NCBI GenBank assembly: GCA_013287965.1
Contig: JABDCU010000002.1
Coordinates: 27,133 to 91,132 of the forward strand
DNA: 64,000 bases
DNA from: Candidatus Omnitrophota bacterium
GTDB lineage: Bacteria > Omnitrophota > Gorgyraeia > Zapsychrales > Fredricksoniimonadaceae
Direction of reading: 5' to 3'
Both the position numbers and the translations under genes were made by a program. Shown here in pieces: positions 11,368 to 49,454 of the stretch; the first letter of the stretch is position 1, and every line of letters starts with the position of its first letter. The notes under the pieces are model-generated. The model ran no database searches. It was not told where the DNA came from and saw only the letters and a list, made by a program, of their open reading frames with translations.

Positions 11368-12587
11368 AACTCATCAAACAAACAGGCATGAATATTGAGA
11401 AACTTTATAACCGCAGCAGGCTGGCGCGTAAAAAGTATATCGAGGAAAAAGTGCGCACCATCATTGATGATGTGCGTTTAAACGGTGATGATGCCGTGCT
11501 TAAATACACCCGGCGTTTCGACGGGGTCAAATTAACGGCCAGACAACTAAAAGTGGATGAGAGCGAGATTTCCAGCGCTTTTCAGAATATTACGCCTGAA
11601 TTTGTGGGGCATTTAAAAACCATTATCAATAATGTCTCAACCTATTATAAAAAACAGCTTCATAAGCCTTGCAAGATCAAGGCCCGCGATGGGGTTTTGC
11701 TTAAAGAAGAAATTCGGCCTCTGGATTCAGTAGGTATCTACATCCCAGCGGGTACAGCGCCGCTGGTTTCTTCGGTTTACATGACAGCAGTGCCGGCCAT
11801 CATTGCCGGTGTCAAACGTGTCGTCATTGTGACACCGCCTAATAAAGAAGGTAATGTTAACCCTTATATCCTGGCGGTGGCGAACCTTTTAAAGGTCAGT
11901 GAGATTTATAAAGTAGGCGGGGCGCAGGCCATTGCGGCCTTGGCCTTGGGCACTAAAACCATCCCTAAAGTGGACAAGATCGTAGGCCCGGGCAATATGT
12001 ACGTTACTGAAGCCAAGCGCCAATTATTCGGTTATGTGGACATTGATATGTTGGCCGGGCCCACGGAACTGGTGGTCATTGCCAACCGTTACAGCAATAC
12101 GGATTATGTGGTGGCGGATTTGGAAGCTCAAATGGAACATGTGGGCGGTTTGTCGATTCTTTTAAGCACTTCCAAGCAATTGATCAAGAACGTGCGCATG
12201 CGCGTGGCCAATGGTTATTGCATTTATTGCAAGAACATGGATGAAGCGGTGGAGATCGCCAACAGAATAGCACCTGAGCATTTGCAGATACTGACTAACA
12301 ACGCGGTCAGCATTGCCAAACAGATCAGGCATGCAGGAGCGATCTTTTTAGGACCATATAGTCCGACAGCGTTGGGTGATTATGCGGCAGGCCCGAGCCA
12401 CGTGCTGCCGACCATGGGCACGGCGCGTTTTTTCTCGGGGCTGTCGTTGTCGAGTTTTACCAAGACCAATCATGTGATTGCGTATAGCAAGAAAGCGCTG
12501 GAAAAGGTCCGCGAGCCGCTGGAGAAGGTGGCTAATTTGGAAGGCATGGCCAAGCACGCGGAATCGGTGAATATTAGATTCAAATAA
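11364..12587 (+). CDS. hisD: Histidinol dehydrogenase
   Basis: HisD-length ORF with PEHL and GDYxAGPSHVLPT motifs. ATGA overlap with the alaS stop. Confidence 0.93.
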   Translation: MKLIKQTGMNIEKLYNRSRLARKKYIEEKVRTIIDDVRLNGDDAVLKYTRRFDGVKLTARQLKVDESEISSAFQNITPEFVGHLKTIINNVSTYYKKQLHKPCKIKARDGVLLKEEIRPLDSVGIYIPAGTAPLVSSVYMTAVPAIIAGVKRVVIVTPPNKEGNVNPYILAVANLLKVSEIYKVGGAQAIAALALGTKTIPKVDKIVGPGNMYVTEAKRQLFGYVDIDMLAGPTELVVIANRYSNTDYVVADLEAQMEHVGGLSILLSTSKQLIKNVRMRVANGYCIYCKNMDEAVEIANRIAPEHLQILTNNAVSIAKQIRHAGAIFLGPYSPTALGDYAAGPSHVLPTMGTARFFSGLSLSSFTKTNHVIAYSKKALEKVREPLEKVANLEGMAKHAESVNIRFK

Positions 12588-35872: not shown

Positions 35873-36834
35873 ATATATTAGGCATTGAAACTTCCTGTGA
35901 TGAGACTGCGGCCGCGGTAGTTCGCGACGGTGTCGCGGTGCTTTCCAATTGTATTGCCAGCAGCCTCAAAGACCATCAGCGTTTTGGCGGCATCATCCCG
36001 GAAATTGCTTCCCGCCGTCAGATAGAGTTCATCCACTGGGTGGTAGGCGAAAGTTTAGCCAAGGCTAAGATGACCCTTAAGGATATTGATGCCTTGGCCG
36101 TCACGCGTTCCCCCGGATTGATCGGCTCCTTGCTGGTGGGTCTTTGTTTTGCCCGCGCTTTAAGTCGTGCTACAGGCAAGCCCCTCATTGAAATCGACCA
36201 TATCAAGGCCCACTTGTATGCTAATTATCTACAGTTACCTAAAGAAAAACTTGCTTGCCCCCAAAACCGCCTGCCAGCAATAGGCCTGGTGGTCTCCGGC
36301 GGGCATTCCAGTCTTTTTTATGTTAAGAATTTTAACGATTTTAAATTGTTGGGCGTGACACGCGATGATGCGGCTGGCGAGGCTTTTGACAAGGTGGCGC
36401 GTATCCTGGAATTGGGTTATCCCGGCGGCCCTGTGATCGACCGTTTGGCGGCCAGCGGGACCAACGAAGAGATCAAATTCCCCCAAGCGCCGCTTTCAGG
36501 TACTTATGATTTTTCTTTTAGCGGGACCAAGACCGCGGTGCTTTATTACACCCAAAAGAATAAAAGTAAACCGGATTATTCTGTTGCCAAGGTGGCTTAT
36601 GCTTTCCAGGAAAGTGTCGTCGCTGTTTTGACGGAAAAATCCCTTAAAGCCTGCCGTAAGCTCAAAGTCAAAACACTTTTGATAGGTGGCGGGGTGGCTG
36701 CTAATTCCGCCTTGCGCCGCCGGCTTTATGCCCGGGCCCAAGAACAAGGGGTGGATGTGTTTTTTCCTCCGATGGCTCTTTGCCTGGATAACGCGGCCAT
36801 GATCGCGGGATTAGCGTACCACTCGATAGGTTGA
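35869..36834 (+). CDS. tsaD: tRNA N6-adenosine threonylcarbamoyltransferase
   Basis: ILGIETSCDETAAAV, VSGGHS, GEAFDKVAR, GGGVAAN. Confidence 0.95.
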   Translation: MNILGIETSCDETAAAVVRDGVAVLSNCIASSLKDHQRFGGIIPEIASRRQIEFIHWVVGESLAKAKMTLKDIDALAVTRSPGLIGSLLVGLCFARALSRATGKPLIEIDHIKAHLYANYLQLPKEKLACPQNRLPAIGLVVSGGHSSLFYVKNFNDFKLLGVTRDDAAGEAFDKVARILELGYPGGPVIDRLAASGTNEEIKFPQAPLSGTYDFSFSGTKTAVLYYTQKNKSKPDYSVAKVAYAFQESVVAVLTEKSLKACRKLKVKTLLIGGGVAANSALRRRLYARAQEQGVDVFFPPMALCLDNAAMIAGLAYHSIG

Positions 36835-36867
36835 CCTTGAAGCTTTATTTTGTTAACATTAATTAAT

Positions 36868-36894
36868 TGGATTCCCGCTTTCGCGGGAATGACA
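36868..36894. repeat. 27-bp-family palindromic repeat, intergenic copy (reverse orientation)
   Basis: TGGATTCCCGCTTTCGCGGGAATGACA between tsaD and the bactofilin gene. Confidence 0.9.
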
Positions 36895-36915
36895 TACTAT
36901 TAATAAGGAGGTCCT

Positions 36916-37431
36916 ATGGCCTTTAACCGCAAAGAACATAAAGAATTGCCTGATGAAAAGATCATTGAGATCAACGCCCAGATGGAAGGGACATTGACTT
37001 TTTCTGATCCGGTGAATCTAAAGATCCACGGCCGTTACACGGGCAAGCTTGATACCCGCGGCACCCTGACCATTGGGTCCAGCGCGCAGGTGGAAGCCAA
37101 TATCATTGGTGAGAATGTTATCGTCGCCGGAAAAGTCAAAGGCAATGTCATTGCCAAAAAAATGCTGGTCTTGATGCCGTCAGCCGTCCTGCACGGGGAC
37201 ATTTCAACGCCTAAATTAAACATTGTTGAAGGGGCCCTCTTTCAGGGCCGCTGCCACATGCTGGAAGATGTCCTGACCATCGATGACTTAGCGCAGTATT
37301 TGGAGATCGAAATTCCCGCTATTTTGGAATTGGCCACAACAGGCAAGATCCCTGCGACCAGAGAGGGAGACAACTGGAAATTTGAACGCGCCCAGATCGA
37401 ACAGTGGGCCGCCTCAGGCAAGGTCCGATGA
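36916..37431 (+). CDS. Bactofilin-domain protein fused to C-terminal excisionase-type (HTH_17/MerR-like) DNA-binding domain
   Basis: Beta-helical repeat region (GTLTIGSSAQVEANIIGENVIVAGKVKGNVIA...LHGDISTPKLNIVEGALFQG), then LTIDDLAQYLEIEIPAILELATTGKIPATREGDNWKFERAQIEQW. AGGAGG RBS. Confidence 0.7.
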   Translation: MAFNRKEHKELPDEKIIEINAQMEGTLTFSDPVNLKIHGRYTGKLDTRGTLTIGSSAQVEANIIGENVIVAGKVKGNVIAKKMLVLMPSAVLHGDISTPKLNIVEGALFQGRCHMLEDVLTIDDLAQYLEIEIPAILELATTGKIPATREGDNWKFERAQIEQWAASGKVR

Positions 37432-37730
37432 GCAGTCAATACATCACCGTCCGTGAAACAGCGCAGATCCTGGCCGTGTCCGAGAAAAAGGTCATGGACC
37501 TGATCGAAGGCGGTAATTTACAGGCCTACAGGATCGCGGACCAGTTCCTGCGCCTTAAACGCAATGAAGTCGTTAACATCCTTTCCACCGGCCAGGTCGT
37601 TTCCGAGAATGTTGCCCATGGGTACACTCCCGGGGAACGCGTGCGCGATTTTTTTTATTTTAACGATTTTTATTTGATATCCCTCGCCGTTATCGGTGTT
37701 TTGCTTTACATTATTTTCTTCACCTATTGA
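37428..37730 (+). CDS. Excisionase-type HTH protein with C-terminal transmembrane anchor
   Basis: YITVRETAQILAVSEKKVMDLIEGGNLQAYRI...FLRLKRNEV, then FYLISLAVIGVLLYIIFF. ATGA overlap with the upstream gene. Confidence 0.65.
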   Translation: MSSQYITVRETAQILAVSEKKVMDLIEGGNLQAYRIADQFLRLKRNEVVNILSTGQVVSENVAHGYTPGERVRDFFYFNDFYLISLAVIGVLLYIIFFTY

Positions 37731-38377
37731 TGGGTCAAATCCGTAAGATCAACGATGTTTATTATATTGAATTCTACGCCCGCGGGTTGCTTTACTCACA
37801 GCTTGCCGGCGATGATATAGAGGAAGCCCAAAAGCTTTTAGAGCGGGTGGAAAAAAAGATCGCCGGCGGTGAAGCGCTGACCATCGCCCGTCACATAGAC
37901 CTGCCGGATTTTTTTGAGCGCTTCCTGGCTGAAGCAAGAGGGCAGCATGGCCCCAAAAGTACCGCGCGATTTGACAGCACCATCAAACATTTCAGCACTT
38001 TTCTGGCTAAAGATTTTCCTCAAGTCCTTCAATTGGCCCAGCTGACGCCTGCCATCATTGAATCGTACAAAGCTTATTTAACCAAAACACAAAAAGCAAA
38101 GATCGTTAACCTGACCATCCTTTTGGTCAGGGATATTTTGGAATTCGGCATTAAATTGGGATTTATTAACGATAATCCCAGCTTGCATGTGCGTTTATTG
38201 CCCTGGCCCAAGGCAATGGCGAGAAAGCCAACAGCCCGTTATGAGATAGCCAGGCAATTATTACCTAAAGCTACCGGCTTGGGTAAGCTTGCCCAATTAT
38301 TAAAACTCCCGGACATCTCCCGTGCCATGTACTATGCCGATTTAATCCCTTTAAGCAGGCAAGAGGCGTATCAATGA
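37730..38377 (+). CDS. Stand-alone phage-integrase N-terminal (SAM-like core-binding) domain protein; no catalytic domain
   Basis: INDVYYIEFYARG..., FLERF..., TIKHFSTFL..., LTPAIIESYKAYL... resembles the integrase arm/core-binding half. 215 aa with no R..HxxR..Y catalytic region. Start overlaps the upstream stop (TGATG). Confidence 0.55.
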   Translation: MGQIRKINDVYYIEFYARGLLYSQLAGDDIEEAQKLLERVEKKIAGGEALTIARHIDLPDFFERFLAEARGQHGPKSTARFDSTIKHFSTFLAKDFPQVLQLAQLTPAIIESYKAYLTKTQKAKIVNLTILLVRDILEFGIKLGFINDNPSLHVRLLPWPKAMARKPTARYEIARQLLPKATGLGKLAQLLKLPDISRAMYYADLIPLSRQEAYQ

Positions 38378-40209
38378 ACACTCTGCGTTGGCTGGTCCTT
38401 ATCCTTTTAGGTTTGGCGATCTATGCCCAGACATTCGGGTTTGGTTTCGTTTTCGATGATAATTTTTATATACTTGATACTTCCTATATTAAAAGTTTTG
38501 ATGCGATCAGCCCAATATGGGCCATTCTTCCCAAGACCCGCCTGGTGGGTATCTATTCCTTCGCATGGAATTATAATATTGGCCAGTTAGACCCGCGCGG
38601 GTATCATATTTTTAATTTTTTGGTCCATCTTTTAGCGGCAGGGCTGGTGTGGGCTTTGGCCGCGTTGCTTTTTAAGATCGCGGGAGGGAAGTCAAATAAA
38701 CCGCTTCTTCAAGAGCTCCCTTTTTTTATCGCGCTGCTGTTCCTTGTCCATCCTTGCCAGACCCAGGCCGTGTCCTATATTTCCCAGCGTTTTGAATCCA
38801 TGGCCGCTGTATTTTATCTCGGTAGTATTTATTTTTATCTACGCGGACGGACAGCATCTTTAAGGGCAGATAAGGTTTTTTTATTCACCTGTTCCGTCGG
38901 ATTTTCTCTCCTTGGGATATTGACTAAAGAGACGGCGGTGACCATTCCTTTGATGATCTTGGCAGTCGAATTCATTCTCTTTAACAGGGTCCCTGTAAAA
39001 TCCAAAAAATCCTCGCCCCGGCAGCCGTACCTGCTGATAAGTATTTTAGGCGTCCTGTTTGTTCTTTTATTGATGAAAATGGTACGGACGGATTTTTTCA
39101 ATATCTATTTCCATTTTTCCGCTCCTTCAGAATCTCACCAGGGCGACATGATCACCGGCGGCAGGTATGTCCTGACCCAAATGCGCGTCTTTTTGACTTT
39201 TTTACGGCTATTAATATTTCCTATCAATCAGAACGTAGACTACGATTACCCATTATCAACAGGGATTCTTGCCCCGCCGCTGACCTTAGTGGGGCTTTGC
39301 CTGATTGGTTTTATTATTTTTTTGATCTTTAGATTACGCAAAGAATGGCCATTGATCGCCTTTGGCCTGGCGTGGATCCTGATCACCTTTTCCATCAACA
39401 CCGCTCCTCGTGTTAATGTGATCTTCGAACATAAATTATACCTGATCTCATTCGGATTTTTCCTGGCAGCAGTGTGTGCCCTATCAACGGTCATTAAAGA
39501 CCGTAAGATTTTATTTGGGATTTTGATCACGCTTATTGCTGTCTTGTCTTTAGCCAGTTATAATCGCAATCAAGTATGGAAGAGTGAGCTGACTCTCTGG
39601 AGTGATGCCGCCCGGAAATCGCCCCATAAAGCAAGGCCCTACAGCAGCCTTGGTGTTGCCTATGGCATGCAAGGTGATTTTGTCCAAGCGTTGCAAAATA
39701 TCAATAAAGCCATTACTATCAATCCTAATTATGCACAAGCCTATAATAATCGCGGTAATACCTATTCTAAATTAGGCAATTATACCCAAGCTATTCTGGA
39801 CTTAAACAAGGCCATTGCCATAAAGCCTGATTATACGCAAGCGTATACTAATTTAAGCGAGGTCTACGATAAACGTGCTACTGTTTCTGCCCAGCAAGGT
39901 AATTTCACCCAGGCCATGCCGGATTTTAATAAAGCCATAGAAATAAACCCCGGGCATGCAGAATTTTATGTAAATCGCGGCACTTGTTATGCCCAACAAG
40001 GGGACCTTGCTCAGGCTTTATCGGATTACGGTAAAGTCATTGCCATCAATCCTGATTATGCAGAGGTGTATTACAATCGGGCGGTCACCTATTATCAATT
40101 AAAAAAATACGATAGGGCTTGGAAAGATGTTCATCGAGCAGAAGAATTAGGGGCTGCTGTTAACCTTAAATTTATTAGTGTGCTAAGAAGAGTATCTGGT
40201 ATAGAATGA
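38374..40209 (+). CDS. Polytopic membrane protein with C-terminal TPR repeats (TMTC-like / GT-C-type glycosyltransferase candidate)
   Basis: About 10 hydrophobic segments with an early FVFDDNFYI motif, then at least six TPR units (AYNNRGNTYSKLGNY..., etc). ATGA overlap. Confidence 0.6.
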   Translation: MNTLRWLVLILLGLAIYAQTFGFGFVFDDNFYILDTSYIKSFDAISPIWAILPKTRLVGIYSFAWNYNIGQLDPRGYHIFNFLVHLLAAGLVWALAALLFKIAGGKSNKPLLQELPFFIALLFLVHPCQTQAVSYISQRFESMAAVFYLGSIYFYLRGRTASLRADKVFLFTCSVGFSLLGILTKETAVTIPLMILAVEFILFNRVPVKSKKSSPRQPYLLISILGVLFVLLLMKMVRTDFFNIYFHFSAPSESHQGDMITGGRYVLTQMRVFLTFLRLLIFPINQNVDYDYPLSTGILAPPLTLVGLCLIGFIIFLIFRLRKEWPLIAFGLAWILITFSINTAPRVNVIFEHKLYLISFGFFLAAVCALSTVIKDRKILFGILITLIAVLSLASYNRNQVWKSELTLWSDAARKSPHKARPYSSLGVAYGMQGDFVQALQNINKAITINPNYAQAYNNRGNTYSKLGNYTQAILDLNKAIAIKPDYTQAYTNLSEVYDKRATVSAQQGNFTQAMPDFNKAIEINPGHAEFYVNRGTCYAQQGDLAQALSDYGKVIAINPDYAEVYYNRAVTYYQLKKYDRAWKDVHRAEELGAAVNLKFISVLRRVSGIE

Positions 40210-41534
40210 CCCATTTAGAGATGAAAACCATGCGATTGCCACGAGCCATTTTAGCAGTTTTTGGGATATCATTTGTTTATTGGGTTTATCTGGCTTTGAG
40301 GTGGAGCTTTTGTTCTGACGTTATTGGATATAAGGAATTAGGCGGCATATTCTACCGCCATGGGTTGATTGGTTATGCAAGTACAGGCCTGCATCGTGAA
40401 CCGCTTTATCCTTTCTTGTGTTCTTTAGCAATGAGTATACAAAGTTTGAGCGGTATTACGTTCACGCATGTCATGGCAGGCTTCAGCGTCCTGATACTGG
40501 TGATAACGCAAATTCTTATGTATATCATTTTGCGGGAATTAAATATCCGCACCTGGGTTTGTTCTTTGACCCTTCTTTATTGGGCTTTATCCACAGCGAT
40601 CACCAGCTCGGCTTTCAACATGTTGTTATTTTGTGAAATTATTACATATCCATTCATCACAGCGGCAGTCATTGCCGGTTACTATGGATGGAAGGCAGTA
40701 AAGGAAAATAACAAAAAGACGGCATGTTGTTGGGGGGCAGTCACTGGTGTTATGTTTATGGCCTTGACTTTTGTCAAAGCTGTTTTTGAATGTATTTGTC
40801 CGCTGTACCTTTTATTTTTTATGGTACTGTGTCTATTTAAGAATAAAATATCTACTTCTCTTGTTTGCTTCCTGGCTGCCGCAGGGATATTATTTTACGT
40901 CCCTGTTATTGGTTATAAATCTTTGAATAAAATTTATAACGGAAATTATGCCATTGCTGACCGTGGTCCAAACACTCTTTATGGCGTTGCGGCCCACAGA
41001 ACATTCCCGTTTAATTTTAGAAGCTATCTGGCCAAACTCACTTCCGTGGCAGGGGATGATGTCTGTATCAAATATTTTAGAGAAGAAGAATGCTCTTACT
41101 GGAGCTGGCATCTAACGGATGCGCTGGGTGCCGATAAAATGAATGAATTGAAGAGGGCCGGCTTACCTCCTCAGATCGTTACAGAGGATCTTTTAGGGCT
41201 TTCTATAGAAAAAGTGATAGGTAATTTGCCCAAATATACTTTATTAACAGCAACAGAAAGTTTGAAAGCGTATTTTTGGGAAGGAACAAATGGCCTTATT
41301 CCATTGCATTTTATTATGGCAATACTAACATTTTTTTCTATGTTTTATTGCTTTTTATTGTTTAAAAGTCTTCCTGATTTGATGAAACACGTGCTGGCCA
41401 TCATTTTATTTTTTATTTTCTTTAATTCTCTTTTTGAAGTTTCACAACGTCATTTTCTTCCGGTCGTTCCGTTGTATCTGCTCGTTATAGGCTACGCTTT
41501 TAATTCATTTTTTAGAACAGTCAGGAATTTTTGA
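40206..41534 (+). CDS. Polytopic integral membrane protein, function unknown (possible GT-C-like)
   Basis: 442 aa, many hydrophobic segments. ATGA overlap with the upstream TPR gene. No motif recognised. Confidence 0.5.
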   Translation: MTHLEMKTMRLPRAILAVFGISFVYWVYLALRWSFCSDVIGYKELGGIFYRHGLIGYASTGLHREPLYPFLCSLAMSIQSLSGITFTHVMAGFSVLILVITQILMYIILRELNIRTWVCSLTLLYWALSTAITSSAFNMLLFCEIITYPFITAAVIAGYYGWKAVKENNKKTACCWGAVTGVMFMALTFVKAVFECICPLYLLFFMVLCLFKNKISTSLVCFLAAAGILFYVPVIGYKSLNKIYNGNYAIADRGPNTLYGVAAHRTFPFNFRSYLAKLTSVAGDDVCIKYFREEECSYWSWHLTDALGADKMNELKRAGLPPQIVTEDLLGLSIEKVIGNLPKYTLLTATESLKAYFWEGTNGLIPLHFIMAILTFFSMFYCFLLFKSLPDLMKHVLAIILFFIFFNSLFEVSQRHFLPVVPLYLLVIGYAFNSFFRTVRNF

Positions 41535-41591
41535 TTTTAAAAATAAAATATGGATTTTATAAGTATATTAAATTAAAGTAGTTGCGATCCT

Positions 41592-41679
41592 GGAGAGGTG
41601 GCAGAGTGGCCGAATGCGGCGGTCTTGAAAACCGTTGCCTCGCAAGGGGCCGTGAGTTCGAATCTCACCCTCTCCGCCA
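41592..41679 (+). tRNA. tRNA-Ser (anticodon UGA), CCA encoded
   Basis: Acceptor GGAGAGG/CCTCTCC, anticodon loop CTTGAAA, long variable arm, T-arm GAGTTCGAATCTC, 3-prime GCCA. Confidence 0.9.
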
Positions 41680-41792
41680 TTAAAAATAACGTGTCGTAAG
41701 TGCTTGACTTGACACGTGATAATAAATATGTTAGTCTTTAGATAGGCGTTTGTGACTGTCTTGTGACATTACAAAGCCGAAAGGAGATTAAC

Positions 41793-42824
41793 ATGGCTGT
41801 TTATAAGCGCGGTAAAATATATTATGTGGACATTCTTCTTCCCGACGGTAAACGCCATAGGAGGAAGGCTGGGCCTTCAAAAGAAGTAGCGGAAAACATC
41901 CAGAAGGATATGGAGGTCCAGAAGGCCAAAGGGGAATTCGGCTTTCTTCCTAAGGACAGTGATTTACCTCCGTTGTTTGAGGGATACATTGAGAAAACCA
42001 CGAACGACAACTCCCCGAGTACAGTAACGCGATATAAGGGTATTATAGAGAATTTTAAGACCTTCCTGTCTAAGAGATACCCGCACGTTTCAAAACACTC
42101 CCACCTTAAACCAGAAATATTTGAAAAGTATAAAACCTATCGCATAGGGCAAGACGCCAAACCAAAGACAATCAATATTGAGCTTCAGACCCTTAAGTCT
42201 CTGATGATCTGGGCCGTTGGTCAAGGCCATGCAAAGTCCAACCCCGCCCAAAACGTAGAGACGATAAAGATCAAAAAAAGGCTTGAGGGTGGCCGCTGGT
42301 TGACTTCGGAAGAGGTTGATAAGCTCTTGAAGCTTAGTAATGAATGGCTTTATCCCATTTTTTACACCTTTATCTACTCTGGGATGCGTAAGAGTGAATT
42401 AGAAAATCTTACATGGGATGATATAGATTTTGCACGCCGTATTATTAAAATCCGTATAAAGGATGACTGGACCCCAAAGACTGACGAGAGGGACATACCG
42501 ATAAGTGATGATTTATTAAAGTTACTTCAAAAGCAAAAGAAGAAAGCCATAGGCTCTTTAGTCTTCCACGATGGTGAGGGCAATAAGATTGATGAGAATA
42601 GGCTGCGTCGAAATCTTATGAGTGTCACCAAGCTGGCAGGCTTCCCTGATGTAACCAAAATCCACTCACTCCGTCATACCTATGGAAGTCACTTAGCGCA
42701 GCAGGGTGTTCCTTTGCCTGCAATTCAGAAATTCATGGGCCACGCGAATATTCAGACCACAATGGTGTATGCTCATTTGGCTCCTGGTTACAGGCCAGAT
42801 GTAGTCAAGAATTTAAAATTTTAA
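41793..42824 (+). CDS. Tyrosine-type site-specific recombinase/integrase
   Basis: N-terminal AVYKRGKIYYVD arm-binding-type start, SAM-like middle, catalytic R (GMRKSEL), HSLRHTYGS, and GHANIQTTMVYAH containing Tyr. AAGGAG RBS. Confidence 0.92.
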   Translation: MAVYKRGKIYYVDILLPDGKRHRRKAGPSKEVAENIQKDMEVQKAKGEFGFLPKDSDLPPLFEGYIEKTTNDNSPSTVTRYKGIIENFKTFLSKRYPHVSKHSHLKPEIFEKYKTYRIGQDAKPKTINIELQTLKSLMIWAVGQGHAKSNPAQNVETIKIKKRLEGGRWLTSEEVDKLLKLSNEWLYPIFYTFIYSGMRKSELENLTWDDIDFARRIIKIRIKDDWTPKTDERDIPISDDLLKLLQKQKKKAIGSLVFHDGEGNKIDENRLRRNLMSVTKLAGFPDVTKIHSLRHTYGSHLAQQGVPLPAIQKFMGHANIQTTMVYAHLAPGYRPDVVKNLKF

Positions 42825-42847
42825 AGAGTTTGAGTTGGTGGAAGAAG

Positions 42848-42880
42848 TACGCGATTAGTGCGCGATTAATGCGTGATTAT
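42848..42880. repeat. Three tandem 11-bp repeats downstream of integrase
   Basis: TACGCGATTAG / TGCGCGATTAA / TGCGTGATTAT, head to tail. Confidence 0.8.
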
Positions 42881-42984
42881 GAAAAAAGGTACGCAGTATA
42901 CACGTCTGTCAGGGATTAGTAGAAAATCAAAAGAAGGTGTTTGAATTTTGTGATATATTATTGAATCTCTTAAAGGAATTTTAA

Positions 42985-44367
42985 ATGACTTACCGTGAAT
43001 CCGAAATAGTCGAATTTAAGAAATCCACTGCTGAATTGAAAGAAGCAGTTTTTTCTATTTCCGCCATCTTGAATAAGCACGGTCAGGGCGAAGTGTATTT
43101 TGGTATTAGAGATGACGGTACGGTTGTCGGTCAGATGGTGGGTAAGGGCACCATTAAGGACGTGACCCAGACTATCACAGACAACCTTGACCCCAAGATT
43201 TTTCCTAAAATTGAGCAAAGAAAAATAGAAGGCAAGGATTGTATCGTCGTTGAATTTCACGGCGTCCATCAGCCCTATTTTGCCTATGGACGGGCGTATA
43301 TGCGGGTCGGGGAATCCGATAAACATTTGACCGCACGGGAGATTGAACATTTTATCCGAAAACAGAAACGATGGTTATGGGAAAATGAAGTCTCCAACAA
43401 GAAATTAACCGATGTTAATGCCGCAACGGTTAAGGAGTACATGCGAAAAGCCAATGCGGCCAAGCGCATTAATTTTAAATACACCGACGTAAAGACTACT
43501 TTAGGAAAGTTGGGATTATTGGTAGGTGGAAAATTGACCAAGGCCGCCGAGGTTTTGTTTTGCAAGAATACTCCTATTGAAGTCCAGGCCGCTGTCTTTG
43601 CAGGGACAGATAAAAACACCTTTTTAGACATAAGTAAGTTTGAGGGAAATATTTTTAAACTGCGTGAAAGGGCCGAGCTATATCTTAAAGAGCATATCAA
43701 ATGGCGTGTTGAAATCGAAAGCGGCCCCAGGAAGGAGATTCCTGAAATCCCCGTTGACGCCATTCGTGAGGCCATCGGTAATTCATTATGCCATAGAGAT
43801 TATACCGACCCCAAAGGTGTTGAGGTTGCCATTTTTAAAGACAGAGTTGATATTTACAACCCAGGAACATTCCCCGAGGAGTTGTCTCCCGAAGACTTTA
43901 TTAAAGGCGGCGGTTATTCCATTTTACGAAATCCTTTAATCGCAGAGACAATGTATAAGTCCGAGGACATCGAGAAATGGGCCAGCGGATTAAAAAGAAT
44001 TTATGATGAATGTAAGTTGGTTGGCGTCAAAGTCGAATTTAAGCAAGTCAAGACAGGTTTTGTTGTGTCATTTAGGCGACCCAAATGGGAAGAAGGAAAA
44101 GGTTTGGAGGTAGGTGGTCAGAAAAAGCAGTCAGAAAAGGTGGCTGGAAAAGGTTCGGAGGAAGTGCGGAGTAAATACGGAGAAAGTGCGGAGAAAGTCT
44201 ATTTATCCATTCAAGCCAATCATTTTATTAAGACCCATGAAATAGCAAAGCAAACCCAATTATCGCAAAGAACAGTTGAGAATGTTATTTTAAGGCTAAA
44301 AAGAGGCCGATTCCTAAAACGTATTGGCCCTGATAAAGGCGGCCATTGGGAAACTATAAGCACATAG
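42985..44367 (+). CDS. AlbA_2 (Schlafen-like) DNA-binding domain + HATPase_c_4-like + C-terminal wHTH protein
   Basis: ESEIVEFKKS...GEVYFGIRDDGTVVG (AlbA_2), AIREAIGNSLCHRDY (ATPase-like), C-terminal LSQRTVENVILRLKRGRFLKRIG. Architecture often annotated as a RecG-like or transcriptional regulator protein. Confidence 0.75.
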   Translation: MTYRESEIVEFKKSTAELKEAVFSISAILNKHGQGEVYFGIRDDGTVVGQMVGKGTIKDVTQTITDNLDPKIFPKIEQRKIEGKDCIVVEFHGVHQPYFAYGRAYMRVGESDKHLTAREIEHFIRKQKRWLWENEVSNKKLTDVNAATVKEYMRKANAAKRINFKYTDVKTTLGKLGLLVGGKLTKAAEVLFCKNTPIEVQAAVFAGTDKNTFLDISKFEGNIFKLRERAELYLKEHIKWRVEIESGPRKEIPEIPVDAIREAIGNSLCHRDYTDPKGVEVAIFKDRVDIYNPGTFPEELSPEDFIKGGGYSILRNPLIAETMYKSEDIEKWASGLKRIYDECKLVGVKVEFKQVKTGFVVSFRRPKWEEGKGLEVGGQKKQSEKVAGKGSEEVRSKYGESAEKVYLSIQANHFIKTHEIAKQTQLSQRTVENVILRLKRGRFLKRIGPDKGGHWETIST

Positions 44368-44372
44368 GGAAT

Positions 44373-44807
44373 ATGACTCGATGGGATTTATTAAATAATT
44401 TAATGATGTCAGGTGAAGATCGACAAGCCATCGGTAAGGCGTGGCCTTTGTTTTTCTTCTTGGTTTTTTATAGTGGCAGATCCAATAAATATGTGACTAA
44501 CTATGCAGAGCTAAAAGAAAAGTTGAAAGAGAGTTCAAATACAATTAAAGCATGGCGGGATCATTTGGTGAAGAATAAAGTGGTACAAGTTTTTAGGGGA
44601 AGCGCATCCATGAGTTTCGTTTTTCTTCCACCGTATGCTTCTTTAGTGACTTGTGAGCAGGATGATATTACGCAGGTTAAAATGGTCGGTGATCCGGCCA
44701 CCAAACGTTTACTTGAGAAGCTTTCTTTGTATAATAACATGTCTTTACTTCCTATCGTTGCGGAACTTAGCCAGAAAATTACTAATATTGAAAAAAAGAT
44801 TGGATAA
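44373..44807 (+). CDS. Hypothetical protein (possible wHTH)
   Basis: 144-aa ORF starting 5 nt after the AlbA_2 gene stop. No recognisable motif. Followed by a terminator. Confidence 0.5.
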   Translation: MTRWDLLNNLMMSGEDRQAIGKAWPLFFFLVFYSGRSNKYVTNYAELKEKLKESSNTIKAWRDHLVKNKVVQVFRGSASMSFVFLPPYASLVTCEQDDITQVKMVGDPATKRLLEKLSLYNNMSLLPIVAELSQKITNIEKKIG

Positions 44808-44832
44808 ATAGAAGAGACATTATACCAACACA

Positions 44833-44869
44833 AAAGGGCTCTCTGATACACAGAGGGCCCTTTCTTTTT
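44833..44869 (+). terminator. Rho-independent terminator
   Basis: AGGGCTCTCTG-ATACA-CAGAGGGCCCT stem with one mismatch, followed by TTCTTTTT. Confidence 0.75.
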
Positions 44870-44920
44870 ATATGAAGGAGCGGTAGAATACTACAACTTT
44901 CTAAACAGAGAAGATTAAAA

Positions 44921-45721
44921 ATGGTGAACAAATTTATTAATTTAAATGAAACGGAACTAGATCTTCCTATTTATCGATATTTGACCATCCCAAAATTATT
45001 TTCTATGTTGTCTTTTGGGGCTTTATGGTTTCCTAAATTAAGAATTTTACAAGATCAATTTGAAGGAGGGCTAACTGTTCCTACAGAAGTTTTAATGAGG
45101 CAAAAAAATGAGGAAATTAAGGGTTTTTTTAATACACCTGATGCCCATCAGCAGATAGATAACTGGCCTAATAAAAATGTTGAAGACGGACGGGAATTGA
45201 CTCTTGTTAATTGTTGGTTTTTGGGGCCCGACGAATCTTTGGCTATGTGGGATGAGTATGTTGGATCTAAAACAGAGGGAGTTGCCGTTAAATCCACGAT
45301 AGGAAGATTGATACAAAATGTGGCAACCATGAAAGAGGTGTCTGAAATTGGGAAGATTAAATATGTGGATTTCTCGAAACACGAAATGGGTTTATATGAA
45401 GCTCATCAAGCTTGCGAAAGAGCTTTTATAAAAGATTTAAAGTACAGCCATGAACGAGAGGTAAGAATTTCTACCATGAGCTTTAAACATCCCTATTGTG
45501 TCGATATGAAAGGACGCCAGTTTACACCGGAAGAGTGCTCAGGCAAGAATATGAATAATTTTGATCAAGATGGACTTTATATTTTGATAAATCTTTCTGG
45601 ATTGGCTTCATCCATCATAATGTCACCCTACTCTTCAGATTGGTGTAAAAACACCGTTTCTCGAGTACTTGAGTTATCTAAATTAAATATACCTATAGAA
45701 AGATCAAAATTAACGTTATGA
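44921..45721 (+). CDS. DUF2971-like protein, upstream partner of the TIR gene
   Basis: LPIYRYLTIPKLFSMLSFGALWFPKLRILQDQFEG, LVNCWFLGPDESLAMWDEYVGSKTEGVAVKS and HEREVRI match my recollection of the DUF2971 pattern. ATGA overlap with the next gene. Confidence 0.6.
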   Translation: MVNKFINLNETELDLPIYRYLTIPKLFSMLSFGALWFPKLRILQDQFEGGLTVPTEVLMRQKNEEIKGFFNTPDAHQQIDNWPNKNVEDGRELTLVNCWFLGPDESLAMWDEYVGSKTEGVAVKSTIGRLIQNVATMKEVSEIGKIKYVDFSKHEMGLYEAHQACERAFIKDLKYSHEREVRISTMSFKHPYCVDMKGRQFTPEECSGKNMNNFDQDGLYILINLSGLASSIIMSPYSSDWCKNTVSRVLELSKLNIPIERSKLTL

Positions 45722-48700
45722 AATATCCTAAGGTATTCATTAGTTATCGTAAGAGTCAGCAATCCCGCCTAGATGAAGCTCGTGAAATAAGAAATTTATT
45801 ACAAACCCAATTTAACTTTGAAACGTGGTTAGATGAAGATCTAAAGGGTGGAGACATTTGGAGAAAAGAGATAGATGAAAAATTGGATTGGGCAGATAGT
45901 TTTTTACTTATAGTGCATTCTGATTTGCATACGGGGAAGGTGGTTTTAGATGAAGTACATTATGCTTTAGAAGCAGTTCAAAGTGGCAAATATAAGAATT
46001 TGGTCTGCCTTATCGTCGAAGAAAGTTTAAATGGCCAATACATAGAAACAATTGATAACACTTTAAAAACGAAGTTCCCTCGAAAAAGTTTTCCTGAATT
46101 ATATCCAAGACAATACATTTCAAAATTTACTCCTTCCTGGAAAGACGATTTAGGGGTTTCTTTTAATCCTATTCTTAAGGAACAGCAAGGGAAAGCCGTA
46201 AATGAAGCAGTAGTAGATGGGGCAAATAAACAAAAGAGAGCTCTTTTGGTTTATGAAGGTCTAGTTTATCTTCTACGACCCTTTAGTTTTAAAGATAAAG
46301 AAGTCAGGCTAATGTTAAAGGGAGTGAGAAGGAAGCTAAATATTATAATTGCCGATGAGCGTAATATTATCTCCAATCTGAAAAGGAATAAAATCATCCT
46401 AGAAACAGGAGATTACATTCTTGTTCATGATGATGATTTTGGTAGAAAGCGAATAGTCCAAGCGTTTTTCGGAACTCCGGCACTTTTAAACTTGGATATT
46501 TTCAAGAATAGTTCTTTAGGGAAAATTAAAACGATACTTTCTTCTTTAGCACAGATAGATAACGTCGCTGTGGAAAATAAGCTAAGAGAGTATCTGGTTG
46601 CTATTAAGGCTATGATTATTAAACAAGATAATGACCAGAGATTAGAGAGTTTGAATTTATTAGAAAAGTTTGCCTATCGCATCCCGAGAGAAACCGTAGA
46701 CATAATAAATTTGCTCGTTGATCCTCGTAATGAGAAAAGAGCTAAGAAATATTTGAAGCCGTTCCCTCGGTATGGATGGGAGCACAAATACATTTTGAAT
46801 AAGTGTTTAGATGTATTAAATCAATACAATGTCCGGTATGGGGCCTTTCATGAATGTTTTGGCATTCTCATAAAACTTTATACATATAAGTTTGAAGAGA
46901 AAGAGTACGCTGATGTAAGGAAGCGGGCTAGCGACACGATGCGAGAAATAGCAAATTATAATCTAAAGTTAATAAGGCCCAAGAATTTGGGCTTTAGAGG
47001 TTACGGAGCCCAGGCACTTGTTTTTGAAGAAATCAAACGACTTCTTAGAAGTAAAGATGAAAGGCTTTTTGATTTAGCTATTTTATTGATAAATAAATTA
47101 TTTGAGACAGAGGCAGAGGCAACTTATTGGGGTTACAAAACCATGACCCATGAGCGAGGTCCGCTCCCTTTATCTAAAGGATTAGTTAAATTAAGAAAAC
47201 AATTAATTGACGAAGTAGTAATACATATCGGTATAAACAAAAAAAATATTAGGAGGCTAAAATGCATAACTGCATTAAAGGGTGCAACTACCTATCCTAT
47301 GAATGTGTATTCAGCTCTTGAACTAGCCATAATGAGCAATACAAGGTTTGTACTTCAATTTTATTCTACTCTAAAAACAGAAAACGAAAACGCAACCGTG
47401 TTACAGGAAATTGATCAACAGTTATCATGGGTAAGAATGCGTTTGGGTCCTTACAAAGGAGAAAATCGAACATCTGCAACGAGTCTTTATAAACAGGCCG
47501 ATCAGCTACAAAGAAAGATACGAGGAGATACATTTTATAGTATTTATAGAACCTTGGTCGGAAGCCACGATTTTGATGAGTTGGGTGGATGGCGGGCTGT
47601 GCAGGATAAACGTGAAAAGGAGATACAGGATTTTATATCTGCTTTGAATGAAAAAAGTCTCATACGCTGGATAAAGATATTAAAACGAATTATATCTACA
47701 TACATCATTAAGAATGACTATGCTTTCGGGAATTTTCGTCGATTTTTAGTGAAGCTAGGTCAGGAAAAACCTGAAATTTCCCTCAAGATTCTCAAAGTGT
47801 TGATTAAAGATATTAAGCCTGTGGATTTCTTAACCTATCTTTTAATGGGGATTAGAAGCTCAGGTAAGCCTCAATTCACCAATGTTGTAGCACGGGATTG
47901 GATAAGATCTAAGGATTTTGAACTGATTAAGCAAATTCCATATTTTTATTCTTATGTTAGTGGTCAAGGAATGGGAACAGTCGATTTCAAAATTTTTGAT
48001 CAACTAATGAAATTGAGGCTTCCCATGATCCAGCGGGCAGAGCTAGATAAAAGAGTATGCTCAGTGATTTCGGCTTTATACAAGGATAGAAAAAAAGAAT
48101 TATATAAGTTTTTTGAAATTTCGATTAAAAGGGCATCAATCCAAAATGTTTCAGAGTTTTGTCATCTTTTAGGTACGGCGGAGTTTGCTGGACATCTTAA
48201 AATTGTCCACCTGCCAATGAAGTTATTTCGATTATTAGTTAATAAGCTAGTACAAAAGAATGTACTGGATGATTATGACACAAGAATCTTAGCTGCTTAT
48301 GGAGAGATCAATATTTTTAAGTTAATCGATTTCTTTAAGATTAGAATCCTTCGTAGGCCAAAATTGAAATTGATTAAATTAACTGACTACCGTTATGATT
48401 CAATTCCGTACCATTTGGGTGAAATTGGAAAGCTTATTGGAGGGCATAAAGATTACGGTAAGATTTTAGAAAAGATTATCGATGAATGGATTCCCGAAAC
48501 AAAAGATAGCATGCTTTCATACGAAGGGAGAGAATTTATACATAATGTTTCCCCAGACCTAGATTCTAAGTTGAAGGAAATTCTTATGAATAAAATAAAA
48601 GTCAGCAAGAGTAAAGCAAAAGATGTTTTACTTTTGTTGTCTGAGTTTGATGGGAATCAATCGATTGATGATTTATGTATTGAGGCAATTAAACGTTACG

Positions 48701-48960
48701 ATGATGAAGATATAAGGAGTATGGTTTCTAGTGCAATATATGCAACGGGAGGCGTGACAGGAGAATACGGATTTTATAATGCCCATAAAGAAAGAAGAGA
48801 TCGGGTTCTTAAGTGGAAGCATGGCAATAATAAATGTTTGAAGCAATTTATAATTGATTTTTCTAAGTCCTTGTCTAAAGATATGCAAAAAGAAAAAGAG
48901 CGAGTTGAGGTCAGAGAAGAGCTAATTAAAAGGGGAGTAGATGTTTTCTCACTAAATTGA
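45718..48960 (+). CDS. TIR-domain protein with roughly 940-aa C-terminal helical-repeat region
   Basis: N-terminus KVFISYRKS...DIWRKEIDEKLDWADSFLLIVHSDLHTGKVVLDEVHYAL has the TIR (TIR_2-like) layout with a candidate catalytic Glu. The remainder is Leu/Lys/Ile-rich and helix-prone, with no P-loop seen. Confidence 0.75.
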   Translation: MKYPKVFISYRKSQQSRLDEAREIRNLLQTQFNFETWLDEDLKGGDIWRKEIDEKLDWADSFLLIVHSDLHTGKVVLDEVHYALEAVQSGKYKNLVCLIVEESLNGQYIETIDNTLKTKFPRKSFPELYPRQYISKFTPSWKDDLGVSFNPILKEQQGKAVNEAVVDGANKQKRALLVYEGLVYLLRPFSFKDKEVRLMLKGVRRKLNIIIADERNIISNLKRNKIILETGDYILVHDDDFGRKRIVQAFFGTPALLNLDIFKNSSLGKIKTILSSLAQIDNVAVENKLREYLVAIKAMIIKQDNDQRLESLNLLEKFAYRIPRETVDIINLLVDPRNEKRAKKYLKPFPRYGWEHKYILNKCLDVLNQYNVRYGAFHECFGILIKLYTYKFEEKEYADVRKRASDTMREIANYNLKLIRPKNLGFRGYGAQALVFEEIKRLLRSKDERLFDLAILLINKLFETEAEATYWGYKTMTHERGPLPLSKGLVKLRKQLIDEVVIHIGINKKNIRRLKCITALKGATTYPMNVYSALELAIMSNTRFVLQFYSTLKTENENATVLQEIDQQLSWVRMRLGPYKGENRTSATSLYKQADQLQRKIRGDTFYSIYRTLVGSHDFDELGGWRAVQDKREKEIQDFISALNEKSLIRWIKILKRIISTYIIKNDYAFGNFRRFLVKLGQEKPEISLKILKVLIKDIKPVDFLTYLLMGIRSSGKPQFTNVVARDWIRSKDFELIKQIPYFYSYVSGQGMGTVDFKIFDQLMKLRLPMIQRAELDKRVCSVISALYKDRKKELYKFFEISIKRASIQNVSEFCHLLGTAEFAGHLKIVHLPMKLFRLLVNKLVQKNVLDDYDTRILAAYGEINIFKLIDFFKIRILRRPKLKLIKLTDYRYDSIPYHLGEIGKLIGGHKDYGKILEKIIDEWIPETKDSMLSYEGREFIHNVSPDLDSKLKEILMNKIKVSKSKAKDVLLLLSEFDGNQSIDDLCIEAIKRYDDEDIRSMVSSAIYATGGVTGEYGFYNAHKERRDRVLKWKHGNNKCLKQFIIDFSKSLSKDMQKEKERVEVREELIKRGVDVFSLN

Positions 48961-49040
48961 AGTTGATTTTTAGTGATTTTTTGATTACAAGTAGTTTGGC
49001 AAAAGAAAGTTTCTATTCACCGAGTAATTTAGAATTTGCC

Positions 49041-49454
49041 ATGAAACCACAAATTAGTCTTGTTACTCTTGGTGTTGATAACTTGGAAGAATCAACTAAA
49101 TTTTATGAAAAAGGTTTAGGACTGCCTCGGTTATCTTTTGAATCAAATGATGTAGCTTTTTTTAATCTCAATGGTACATGGTTGGCTTTATATCCCTGGG
49201 AAAAGTTGGCTGTAGATGCACAGGTTTCAGCTAAAGGTACAGGCTTTCGTGGAATTACTTTGGCGCATAATGTGAGTAGTAAGGCGGAAGTAGATGAGGT
49301 TATATCTCAAGCGAAAAAGGCAGGAGCAAAGATTCAGAAACCAGCACAGGATGTATCTTGGGGAGGGTATTCTGGGTACTTTGTTGACTTAGACGGGCAT
49401 CTTTGGGAAGTAGCCTGGAATCCTCATTTTTGGCCTGGTCCAAAGGACGAATAA
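49041..49454 (+). CDS. VOC (glyoxalase/bleomycin-resistance/dioxygenase) family protein
   Basis: MKPQISLVTLGVDNLEESTKFYEKGLG...GYSGYFVDLDGHLWEVAWNP. The ORF-track start at 48957 overlaps the TIR gene end, so the internal ATG is preferred. Confidence 0.8.
   Translation: MKPQISLVTLGVDNLEESTKFYEKGLGLPRLSFESNDVAFFNLNGTWLALYPWEKLAVDAQVSAKGTGFRGITLAHNVSSKAEVDEVISQAKKAGAKIQKPAQDVSWGGYSGYFVDLDGHLWEVAWNPHFWPGPKDE

Follow-up and report, generated by a model that had tools for sequence, protein, structure and literature searches.

Three probable evolutionary layers in a run of five overlapping genes of a Candidatus Omnitrophota bacterium: a bactofilin-HTH gene pair, a putatively non-catalytic integrase derivative and variable membrane-protein cargo

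Five consecutive genes, g1 to g5, on contig JABDCU010000002.1 of a Candidatus Omnitrophota bacterium (GenBank assembly GCA_013287965.1) overlap each other at every stop and start codon, and the question raised by this locus is whether such an arrangement marks one functional system. Omnitrophota is a phylum of ultra-small, partly host-dependent bacteria. An initial annotation of the window, a stretch of 64,000 nucleotides (nt) covering positions 27,133 to 91,132 of the contig, had described the five genes as a translationally coupled operon in which three DNA-binding-type modules are joined to putative envelope glycosyltransferases. Here we favor, with moderate confidence, a different answer: the pair g1-g2, the gene g3 and the variable cargo g4 and g5 are three evolutionary layers that abut in a gene-dense Omnitrophota chromosome and do not form one system. 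The five genes, with positions counted in the window, are the following.

36916-37431, + strand: g1, open reading frame (ORF) of 171 amino acids (aa), bactofilin plus helix-turn-helix (HTH) domain
37428-37730, + strand: g2, ORF of 100 aa, HTH domain plus transmembrane anchor
37730-38377, + strand: g3, ORF of 215 aa, internally deleted tyrosine recombinase derivative
38374-40209, + strand: g4, ORF of 611 aa, GT-C-fold membrane domain plus tetratricopeptide repeats (TPR), variable cargo
40206-41534, + strand: g5, ORF of 442 aa, polytopic membrane protein, variable cargo

A scan of the GTDB species representatives with a g3 profile delivered 29 loci (L numbers denote fetched loci here and below), against which all proteins of the window were compared by tblastn. 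Every one of these loci belongs to a metagenome-assembled genome titled Candidatus Omnitrophota or, in 13 of the 29 cases, 'uncultured Planctomycetales'. The homologues of g1 and g3 with a named source are from Candidatus Omnitrophica/Omnitrophota, with one g3 match bearing a stray 'Hanamia sp.' label. In the nearest clade the order gatB-ctpA-deacetylase-tsaD-g1-g2-g3 is kept in L006-L009 and L011-L014, and the short locus L010 contains g1-g2-g3; identities to the window are 84-92% for g1, 80-91% for g2 and 61-77% for g3. Both g4 and g5 are missing from L006, L007, L008, L013 and L014, while L009 has g4 and no g5, and L012 has a g4 paralogue 4 kb off. The only genome with a g5 homologue among the fetched loci (L002/L003/L011) carries it inverted, at 54% identity, and g4 is missing there. 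At 72-73% identity to g1 the order gatCAB-ctpA-deacetylase-tsaD-g1-g2 is kept and g3 is not there, and remoter g1-g2 loci continue into radical SAM, LMWPc or PMT_2 genes, followed by SNase, tilS and ftsH. Beyond the nearest clade g3 is solitary.

A metagenome scan with a g1 profile provided 80 further loci, which were sampled by their flanks. g2 starts within 100 nt after g1 in 71/71 of these loci, and tsaD lies upstream of g1 in 57/57. g3 adjoins g2 in 32 of the 37 loci with at least 80% g1 identity and in none of the 23 with less than 80%. g4 follows directly after g3 in 4/22 loci and g5 is present in 0/22; the complete five-gene order was seen on the window's own contig only. Because g1-g2 occurs without an adjacent g3 in 23/23 remote loci, and g3 without adjacent g1-g2 in at least 15 genomes, the linkage of the two is derived and not ancestral. 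The g1-g2 pair stands out as an ancient, vertically inherited two-gene module downstream of tsaD and with its own promoter, to which g3 has been added as a third cistron in the window's clade only. The five genes taken as one functional unit are at odds with these unlinked homologous loci, and of the five-gene order only g1-g2 is robust among relatives.

The four overlaps as such are exactly those initially described (ATGA at 37428-37431, TGATG at 37728-37732, ATGA at 38374-38377 and ATGA at 40206-40209). All five ORFs are called identically on the public contig Logan SRR8431262_56 from the same organism, and the gene calls and main domain assignments were borne out by ORF calling and by Pfam and NCBIfam profiles run against their curated cut-offs. 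The overlaps lose their value as a sign of one unit, since they are the genomic norm: 24 of the 52 same-strand neighbor pairs of the window overlap or abut (longest-ORF starts used), and so do the unrelated upstream pairs gatB/ctpA, ctpA/deacetylase and deacetylase/tsaD. A strong Shine-Dalgarno sequence (AAGGAGG) is found on g1 alone of the five genes. A terminator scan gave no signal above background, and a tRNA was the sole Rfam match over 36000-43000. The genome is extremely compact; about 57 of 59 long ORFs of the window are on the + strand, and its cumulative guanine-cytosine (GC) skew climbs almost monotonically; therefore the window seems to be located on one replichore with a strong gene-strand bias.

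A single five-gene system that joins three DNA-binding modules to two envelope glycosyltransferases would be in line with four successive overlaps behind one promoter and with the recurrence of GT-C-type genes downstream of g2/g3 in several lineages. It is nevertheless highly improbable, given the confinement of the full order to one contig, the low counts for g4 and g5, the genome with an inverted g5 and no g4, the commonness of overlaps in this genome and the lack of a detectable glycosyltransferase signature in g5; moreover, the place of g4 and g5 is filled elsewhere by unrelated genes (tail-fiber-like, methyltransferase, other membrane proteins).

The bactofilin-HTH fusion initially assigned to g1 is confirmed by two domains above their cut-offs. 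The bactofilin beta-helix (aa 16-113) matches PF04519 with 4.8e-24 and 84.9 bits (cut-off 27.9) over profile positions 2-97 of 98, and the excisionase-type winged HTH (aa 119-168) matches PF12728 with 2.5e-8 and 34.5 bits (cut-off 27) and TIGR01764 with 5.6e-8 and 33.0 bits (cut-off 28.8). Both domains are present in each of the 120 best g1 homologues, whose lengths are all close to 172 aa. In an alignment of 13 homologues the N-terminus MAFNRKE is invariant, as is much of the beta-helix and of the HTH. Bactofilins polymerize independently of nucleotides and associate with the membrane via an N-terminal targeting sequence; we take the MAFNRKE terminus to be compatible with such a targeting peptide. 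An acidic HTH is common to 13/13 g1 homologues, with a net charge of -4 to -6 and an isoelectric point of 4.4, and the g2 HTH is about neutral in charge.

g2 is an HTH protein with a single C-terminal transmembrane helix (aa 81-99), as had been proposed. Its N-terminal HTH (aa 5-49) scores just under both cut-offs (PF12728 7.1e-6, 26.6 bits versus 27; TIGR01764 26.9 bits versus 28.8), so its membership in the excisionase family is borderline. The HTHs of g1 and g2 were also considered as recent duplicates, which was rejected at an identity of only about 20% and an E-value of 0.015. Pairwise ratios of nonsynonymous to synonymous substitution rates (dN/dS), which are rough because synonymous sites are near saturation, amount to 0.065 for g1 and 0.067 for g2, both below the 0.091 of tsaD. 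By context neither protein is a functional excisionase: the adjoining recombinase derivative is devoid of a catalytic core, and the position after tsaD is vertically inherited. The initial suggestion that the HTHs were repurposed as protein-interaction modules receives some support from the acidity of the g1 HTH, and for that HTH only. In the reading favored here g1 would polymerize into a membrane-associated bactofilin scaffold whose acidic HTH would serve as an adaptor and not as a general DNA binder, and g2 would be a membrane-anchored partner or docking site with its HTH towards the cytoplasm; these putative roles are drawn from the architecture and from known bactofilin systems. Full-text literature searching found no description of a bactofilin-HTH fusion, nor of bactofilins from Omnitrophota.

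Two features are located upstream of g1.

36831-36859, + strand: predicted sigma-70-like promoter from a consensus scan, TTGACC-17 nt-TAACAT with an upstream TG (extended -10)
36871-36890, + strand: GC-rich hairpin or palindrome of 8 bp, located after the promoter and ahead of the g1 Shine-Dalgarno sequence (minimum free energy -13.3 kcal/mol, z -4.2)

A similar TTGAC.../extended -10 layout is visible by eye upstream of g1 in most of 10 relatives (e.g., L006, L008, L009, L012, L013, L035 and L037). Hairpins of differing sequence occupy the same place in L006, L008 and L009 (single-sequence folds, z -1.9 to -3.2); the sequence of the palindrome is not conserved and many relatives are without one. 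The element at 36871-36890 could be a stem-loop of the 5' untranslated region that stabilizes the mRNA 5' end, or an operator.

A palindrome at this place enters into a second reading of the pair: the HTH of g1, of g2 or of both would be a transcription factor retained at the membrane or on the polymer, released to DNA under envelope stress and autoregulating the operon via this element. Its model is Bacillus subtilis, where the bactofilins BacE and BacF, encoded with the HTH protein BacR (YhbD), bring BacR to the membrane and lower its DNA binding, and where BacR relocalizes to the nucleoid on vancomycin (PMC13649987). The likeness consists in an HTH protein genetically coupled to bactofilins, here by fusion to the bactofilin itself or to a transmembrane anchor, and the hairpin between promoter and Shine-Dalgarno sequence in the window and three relatives would suit it as well. 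However, BacR belongs to another phylum and is a separate, soluble and relocalizing protein with a DUF4004 HTH, a family distinct from HTH_17, whereas in g1 an HTH_17 is fused to the bactofilin and the second HTH, in g2, is membrane-anchored. HTHs bound in this way would be unable to relocalize without proteolysis, the one in g1 is acidic, and the palindrome is unconserved and often absent; we therefore regard such a switch as doubtful.

The second layer, g3, matches Phage_int_SAM_5 (PF13102) with 2.1e-6 and 28.5 bits (cut-off 22.3) and gave no PF00589 match in the Pfam scan. It consists of an arm-type beta-sheet domain (aa 1-48), a core-binding domain (aa 58-150) and a remnant of the catalytic C-terminus (aa 167-215). 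The initial annotation had recognized only the N-terminal arm and core-binding half of a tyrosine recombinase; a working catalytic domain is indeed lacking, but the last approximately 48 residues are the C-terminus of that domain. An exhaustive profile search delivered 941 relatives, of which 123, as cluster representatives, fall below 1e-30; most of these have 310-350 aa and were matched in two stretches. The g3 tail (positions 167-214 of the hidden Markov model, HMM) corresponds in hmmsearch to the extreme C-terminus of 96 full-length representatives, with independent E-values (i-Evalue) down to 6e-12 and a median of 6.5 residues remaining past the match; the gap between the N-terminal and tail matches has a median of 117 aa. 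In the alignment register the invariant R170 of g3 is Arg II of the H-x-x-R box, the one residue of the catalytic signature that is kept; at the nucleophile position 202, 7 of 16 sequences have Y, 7 have F and 2 have W. Reading the tail as a separate HTH or as the beginning of the catalytic domain was rejected, as MAFFT and the HMM align it with the final, C-terminal part that reaches from Arg II to the Tyr helix.

The internal deletion of about 117 aa has removed Arg I, the beta-hairpin Lys and His II from g3. A tyrosine recombinase without these residues is incapable of strand exchange, and judged by its sequence g3 cannot catalyze this reaction. The full-length relatives are themselves largely degenerate: R-K-H-R-H-Y is intact in only 10 of 102, the expected Arg I is present in 54, the expected His II in 13 and a histidine at His/Trp III in 11, and Arg II persists in 93 and the Tyr in 83. 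The loss of recombinase activity therefore probably took place before the internal deletion. Intermediate forms of 244-271 aa, with a gap of about 40-60 aa (P0244, P0256, P0267, P0269, P0272, P0274, P0279 and P0280), suggest that the catalytic core was eroded in steps or deleted several times independently. Together with L029-L034 the 102 full-length relatives constitute a large tyrosine-recombinase-like family beside tRNA-Ser genes, which may as a whole be non-catalytic or atypical. In L032 (10985-11218) a short repetitive DNA array, which reads as tandem 'KSQSHKVT' repeats in two frames, directly follows the full-length g3 relative.

About 190 homologues of g3, 53-100% identical, are 211-219 aa long, barring a few longer calls, and free of disruptions. 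An alignment of 16 sequences that reaches down to 53% identity has 39 invariant columns, and the pairwise dN/dS is about 0.125 (with synonymous sites near saturation), similar to that of tsaD. g3 is a conserved lambda-Int-type derivative under purifying selection that has lost its core by internal deletion; it is not a frameshifted fragment of a normal integrase, an outcome that the initial annotation had named as one that would overturn it. The missing catalytic core, the setting at a tRNA-Ser and an island with an intact integrase, and the intermediate lengths, read as stepwise erosion, could also describe a decaying, functionless pseudogene of the island integrase. Against the number of undisrupted homologues, the invariant columns, the dN/dS ratio and the conservation of the syntenic position over the Omnitrophota loci sampled, a pseudogene is scarcely credible.

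The AlphaFold2 model of g3 (predicted local distance difference test, pLDDT, 86.7) shows a three-stranded sheet plus helix at 3-45 (sheet 3-27), a four-helix core-binding domain at 58-143 and a helical tail at 169-214. The best Foldseek match is full-length lambda Int (1z1b, E 1.7e-4), arm domain included, and isolated core-binding domains match with target-normalized template modeling scores (TMt) of 0.85 (3nrw) and 0.82 (2oxo). According to these models g3 thus keeps the arm and core DNA-binding domains of a lambda-type integrase, i.e., its heterobivalent DNA-binding apparatus. In the three-layer reading g3 would be a non-catalytic, site-specific, two-site DNA-binding protein that is simply co-expressed with the scaffold in the window's clade.

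A comparable fate is known for TnsF of Tn6022, an inactivated tyrosine recombinase that was derived from active relatives and serves as target selector (PMC10293859). g3 resembles TnsF as a tyrosine recombinase derivative whose active site is lost and which is retained as a putative site-specific DNA-binding module. TnsF belongs to a mobile Tn7-like element and has N-terminal zinc fingers, tandem core-binding domains and comM as its target, whereas g3 is chromosomal and vertically inherited, with a lambda-type arm domain, an internally deleted core and preserved C-terminal helices. ALOG domains and domesticated Cryptons are tyrosine recombinase DNA-binding domains exapted for the host after loss of catalysis (PMC3537659, PMC3212892); they differ in being eukaryotic, derived from retroposon or Crypton recombinases and unrelated to g3 in sequence.

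The landmark of the g3 neighborhood is a tRNA gene.

41592-41679, + strand: tRNA-Ser(UGA), called by ARAGORN (Rfam RF00005, 59 bits), conserved landmark downstream of g3 and attachment point of an island

In 13 related loci a tRNA-Ser (CGA or UGA) begins 12-149 bp past the stop codon of g3 or its full-length relative. L016, L018 and L023 have another tRNA-Ser in front of g3 or the full-length relative, ending 10-82 bp ahead of its start, and five more fetched loci, as well as the window, have a tRNA-Ser on the same strand 1.4-5.7 kb downstream of g3. These positions place the ancestral home of g3 beside tRNA-Ser genes; in the window's clade the block of g3 and tRNA-Ser stands directly behind g1-g2. 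The integrase of a tRNA-Ser-targeting element was likely fixed, inactivated and exapted. Just past g3 in L023 (10663-10818) an ORF artefact translating to GEVAEWSNAAVLK resembles the 5' half of a tRNA-Ser and is not called by ARAGORN; it may be an att-type remnant of integration.

An HTH_17 protein next to an integrase is the canonical xis-int pairing, and the order of HTH genes followed by a recombinase derivative in g1-g2-g3 mimics it. This leads to a further reading, in which g1-g2-g3 form a recombination-free complex similar to lambda Int/Xis that pins a chromosomal site, possibly the tRNA-Ser region, to a membrane-bound bactofilin polymer as an anchoring or segregation device. Cotranscription and overlap of the three genes in the window's clade, retention of both arm-type and core-binding domains in g3 and its ancestral position at tRNA-Ser, a typical att site, would agree with such a tether, as would the likeness to the lambda Int/Xis structures (1z1b, 5j0n) in the arm and core domains of g3 and the excisionase-family HTHs of g1 and g2. 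In Myxococcus xanthus, moreover, the BacNOP polymer is a platform that positions DNA-binding proteins and chromosome loci (ParB-parS, ParA) through the adaptor PadC (PMC5703909). In contrast to that system no ParB-like or PadC-like protein is present here, and the DNA-binding-type module is part of the g1 bactofilin itself and acidic, which makes it poor for DNA binding. Unlike lambda Int, g3 has no catalytic domain, hence no recombination; no mobile element surrounds it, and the HTHs are fused to a cytoskeletal polymer or a membrane anchor and are not closely paralogous. No repeat sites of arm or core type were identified, and g3 does not adjoin g1-g2 in any of the 23 remote-clade loci with room downstream, just as it stands without them in the solitary genomes. 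A tether of this kind is unlikely.

The three-layer reading is completed by g4 and g5, which occupy a hypervariable slot between g3 and the tRNA-Ser(UGA). In L006 the slot holds a 459-aa protein (10697-12076) with Peptidase_S74 (endosialidase/tail-fiber chaperone, 4.4e-19), which hints at phage-derived cargo. Other large membrane proteins are found in L007, L009 and L012, a methyltransferase-like ORF and small ORFs in L013, and in L014 the slot is almost empty. Pfam applied to nine membrane or secreted slot proteins of relatives detected no glycosyltransferase family, and Peptidase_S74 of L006 was the only match.

g4 consists of a GT-C-fold polytopic domain (aa 1-415) and a TPR domain (aa approximately 420-611), the latter matching TPR_1 in 5 stretches (2.4e-41, 138 bits) and TPR_2 in 5 stretches. 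The hydropathy scan gives about 9 transmembrane segments, and the AlphaFold2 model has more transmembrane helices. The motif FVFDDNFYI occupies residues 25-33; its two aspartates, D28 and D29, do not vary among 32 homologues. For aa 1-420 there is no Pfam match (PMT, PMT_2 and DUF1736 included) even at E <= 10, and no PDB sequence match. The AlphaFold2 model from 32 homologues (pLDDT 85.2, predicted template modeling score 0.87) has as Foldseek neighbors ArnT (5f15; E 3.9e-3 and query-normalized score, TMq, 0.52, both the best), AglB, PglB, ALG12, Pmt1/2, Pmt4 and EmbB; every top match at probability 0.95-1.0 is a GT-C enzyme. A large Omnitrophota family of proteins ending in TPRs includes g4, and the Joint Genome Institute (JGI) labels some of its members 'protein O-mannosyl-transferase'. 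The eukaryotic TMTC1-4 share with g4 a polytopic N-terminus of GT-C fold, the invariant DD in the first loop and the TPRs that follow. Structural neighbors, TPRs and invariant DD therefore support the initially proposed TMTC-like architecture at the level of the predicted fold, with the difference that the g4 membrane domain matches none of PMT, PMT_2 and DUF1736, and its best structural E-value is the modest one of ArnT. g4 would act as a glycosyltransferase of the envelope, with its TPR domain selecting the substrate, and would be functionally unrelated to g1-g3.

g5 has about 9 transmembrane segments and no family match in Pfam, NCBIfam or PDB sequences. Comparison by hhalign with the g4 family and with PMT_2 proteins, using thin profiles, indicated no relation (probability <1%), and the initial labeling of g5 as a glycosyltransferase is unsupported. 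NCBIfam matches to MamR, MamA and MADS1 were dismissed as far under their cut-offs and due to generic HTH_17 and TPR similarity.

Several observations weigh against a division into three unconnected layers. In most loci of the window's clade g2 and g3 overlap by 1 nt, and g3 remains attached to g1-g2 over a range of 61-79% g3 identity; both would be compatible with a genuine functional link. The acidity of the g1 HTH does not by itself prove that DNA binding was lost, and the functions proposed for the genes are deduced from sequence and models. Matches to the g4 family occur in 11 fetched g1-bearing loci, all of them downstream of g2/g3 and none elsewhere in the approximately 1 Mb fetched, and PMT_2 genes lie downstream of g2 in 4 more distant loci. 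g4-family paralogues, sometimes in tandem arrays, or PMT_2 genes follow g3 in L078, L012, L071, L009 and L080, and follow g2 in L037, L088, L090 and L097. This recurrence of GT-C-type genes in several lineages may therefore reflect a loose association of envelope-glycosylation genes with the g1-g2(-g3) neighborhood; because the sampled flanks provide no fair baseline, it is not regarded as a system.

Downstream of the tRNA-Ser an intact integrase opens a separate element.

41793-42824, + strand: intact tyrosine integrase (PF00589 3e-32, plus PF13102), 26% identical to g3 over 156 aa

g3 was considered as a piece of this integrase, which was rejected: the latter is complete, island-borne and only 26% identical. 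The region 41763-49454 is an ordinary tRNA-borne defense island at the tRNA-Ser, containing the integrase, a Schlafen AlbA_2/HATPase_c_4 protein with weak PADLOC matches to pAgo/Aga-associated models, a PDC-S31-like protein, a 1080-aa TIR_2 protein and a glyoxalase. Its GC content is 0.34-0.40 compared to 0.45-0.50 in the flanks, and it stops before kdpABC (50281). A search of the window for an attR copy of the tRNA-Ser 3' end, allowing up to 3 mismatches, found none. The adjoining island explains the integrase-like flavor of the neighborhood.

For the reading of compact genomes, the locus illustrates that runs of ATGA overlaps are no evidence of a functional operon, and that freely exchanged cargo can lie in the interval separating a conserved gene from a tRNA. 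The g3 family appears, from its sequences, to document a long-lived route from a tRNA-targeting integrase to a conserved, putatively non-catalytic DNA-binding protein, by decay of the active site followed by internal deletion, and would be a bacterial chromosomal counterpart of TnsF and of the eukaryotic ALOG and Crypton cases. If the tether reading were true, an integration module of a mobile element would have been exapted into a chromosome-anchoring or segregation device of a new class. Recruitment of other proteins to a scaffold is a known role of bactofilins. We found no description of an architecture in which the bactofilin itself incorporates an excisionase-type HTH and is invariably accompanied, in the sampled Omnitrophota loci, by a membrane-anchored HTH protein, and the g1-g2 pair offers a concrete handle on cell organization in this uncultivated phylum.

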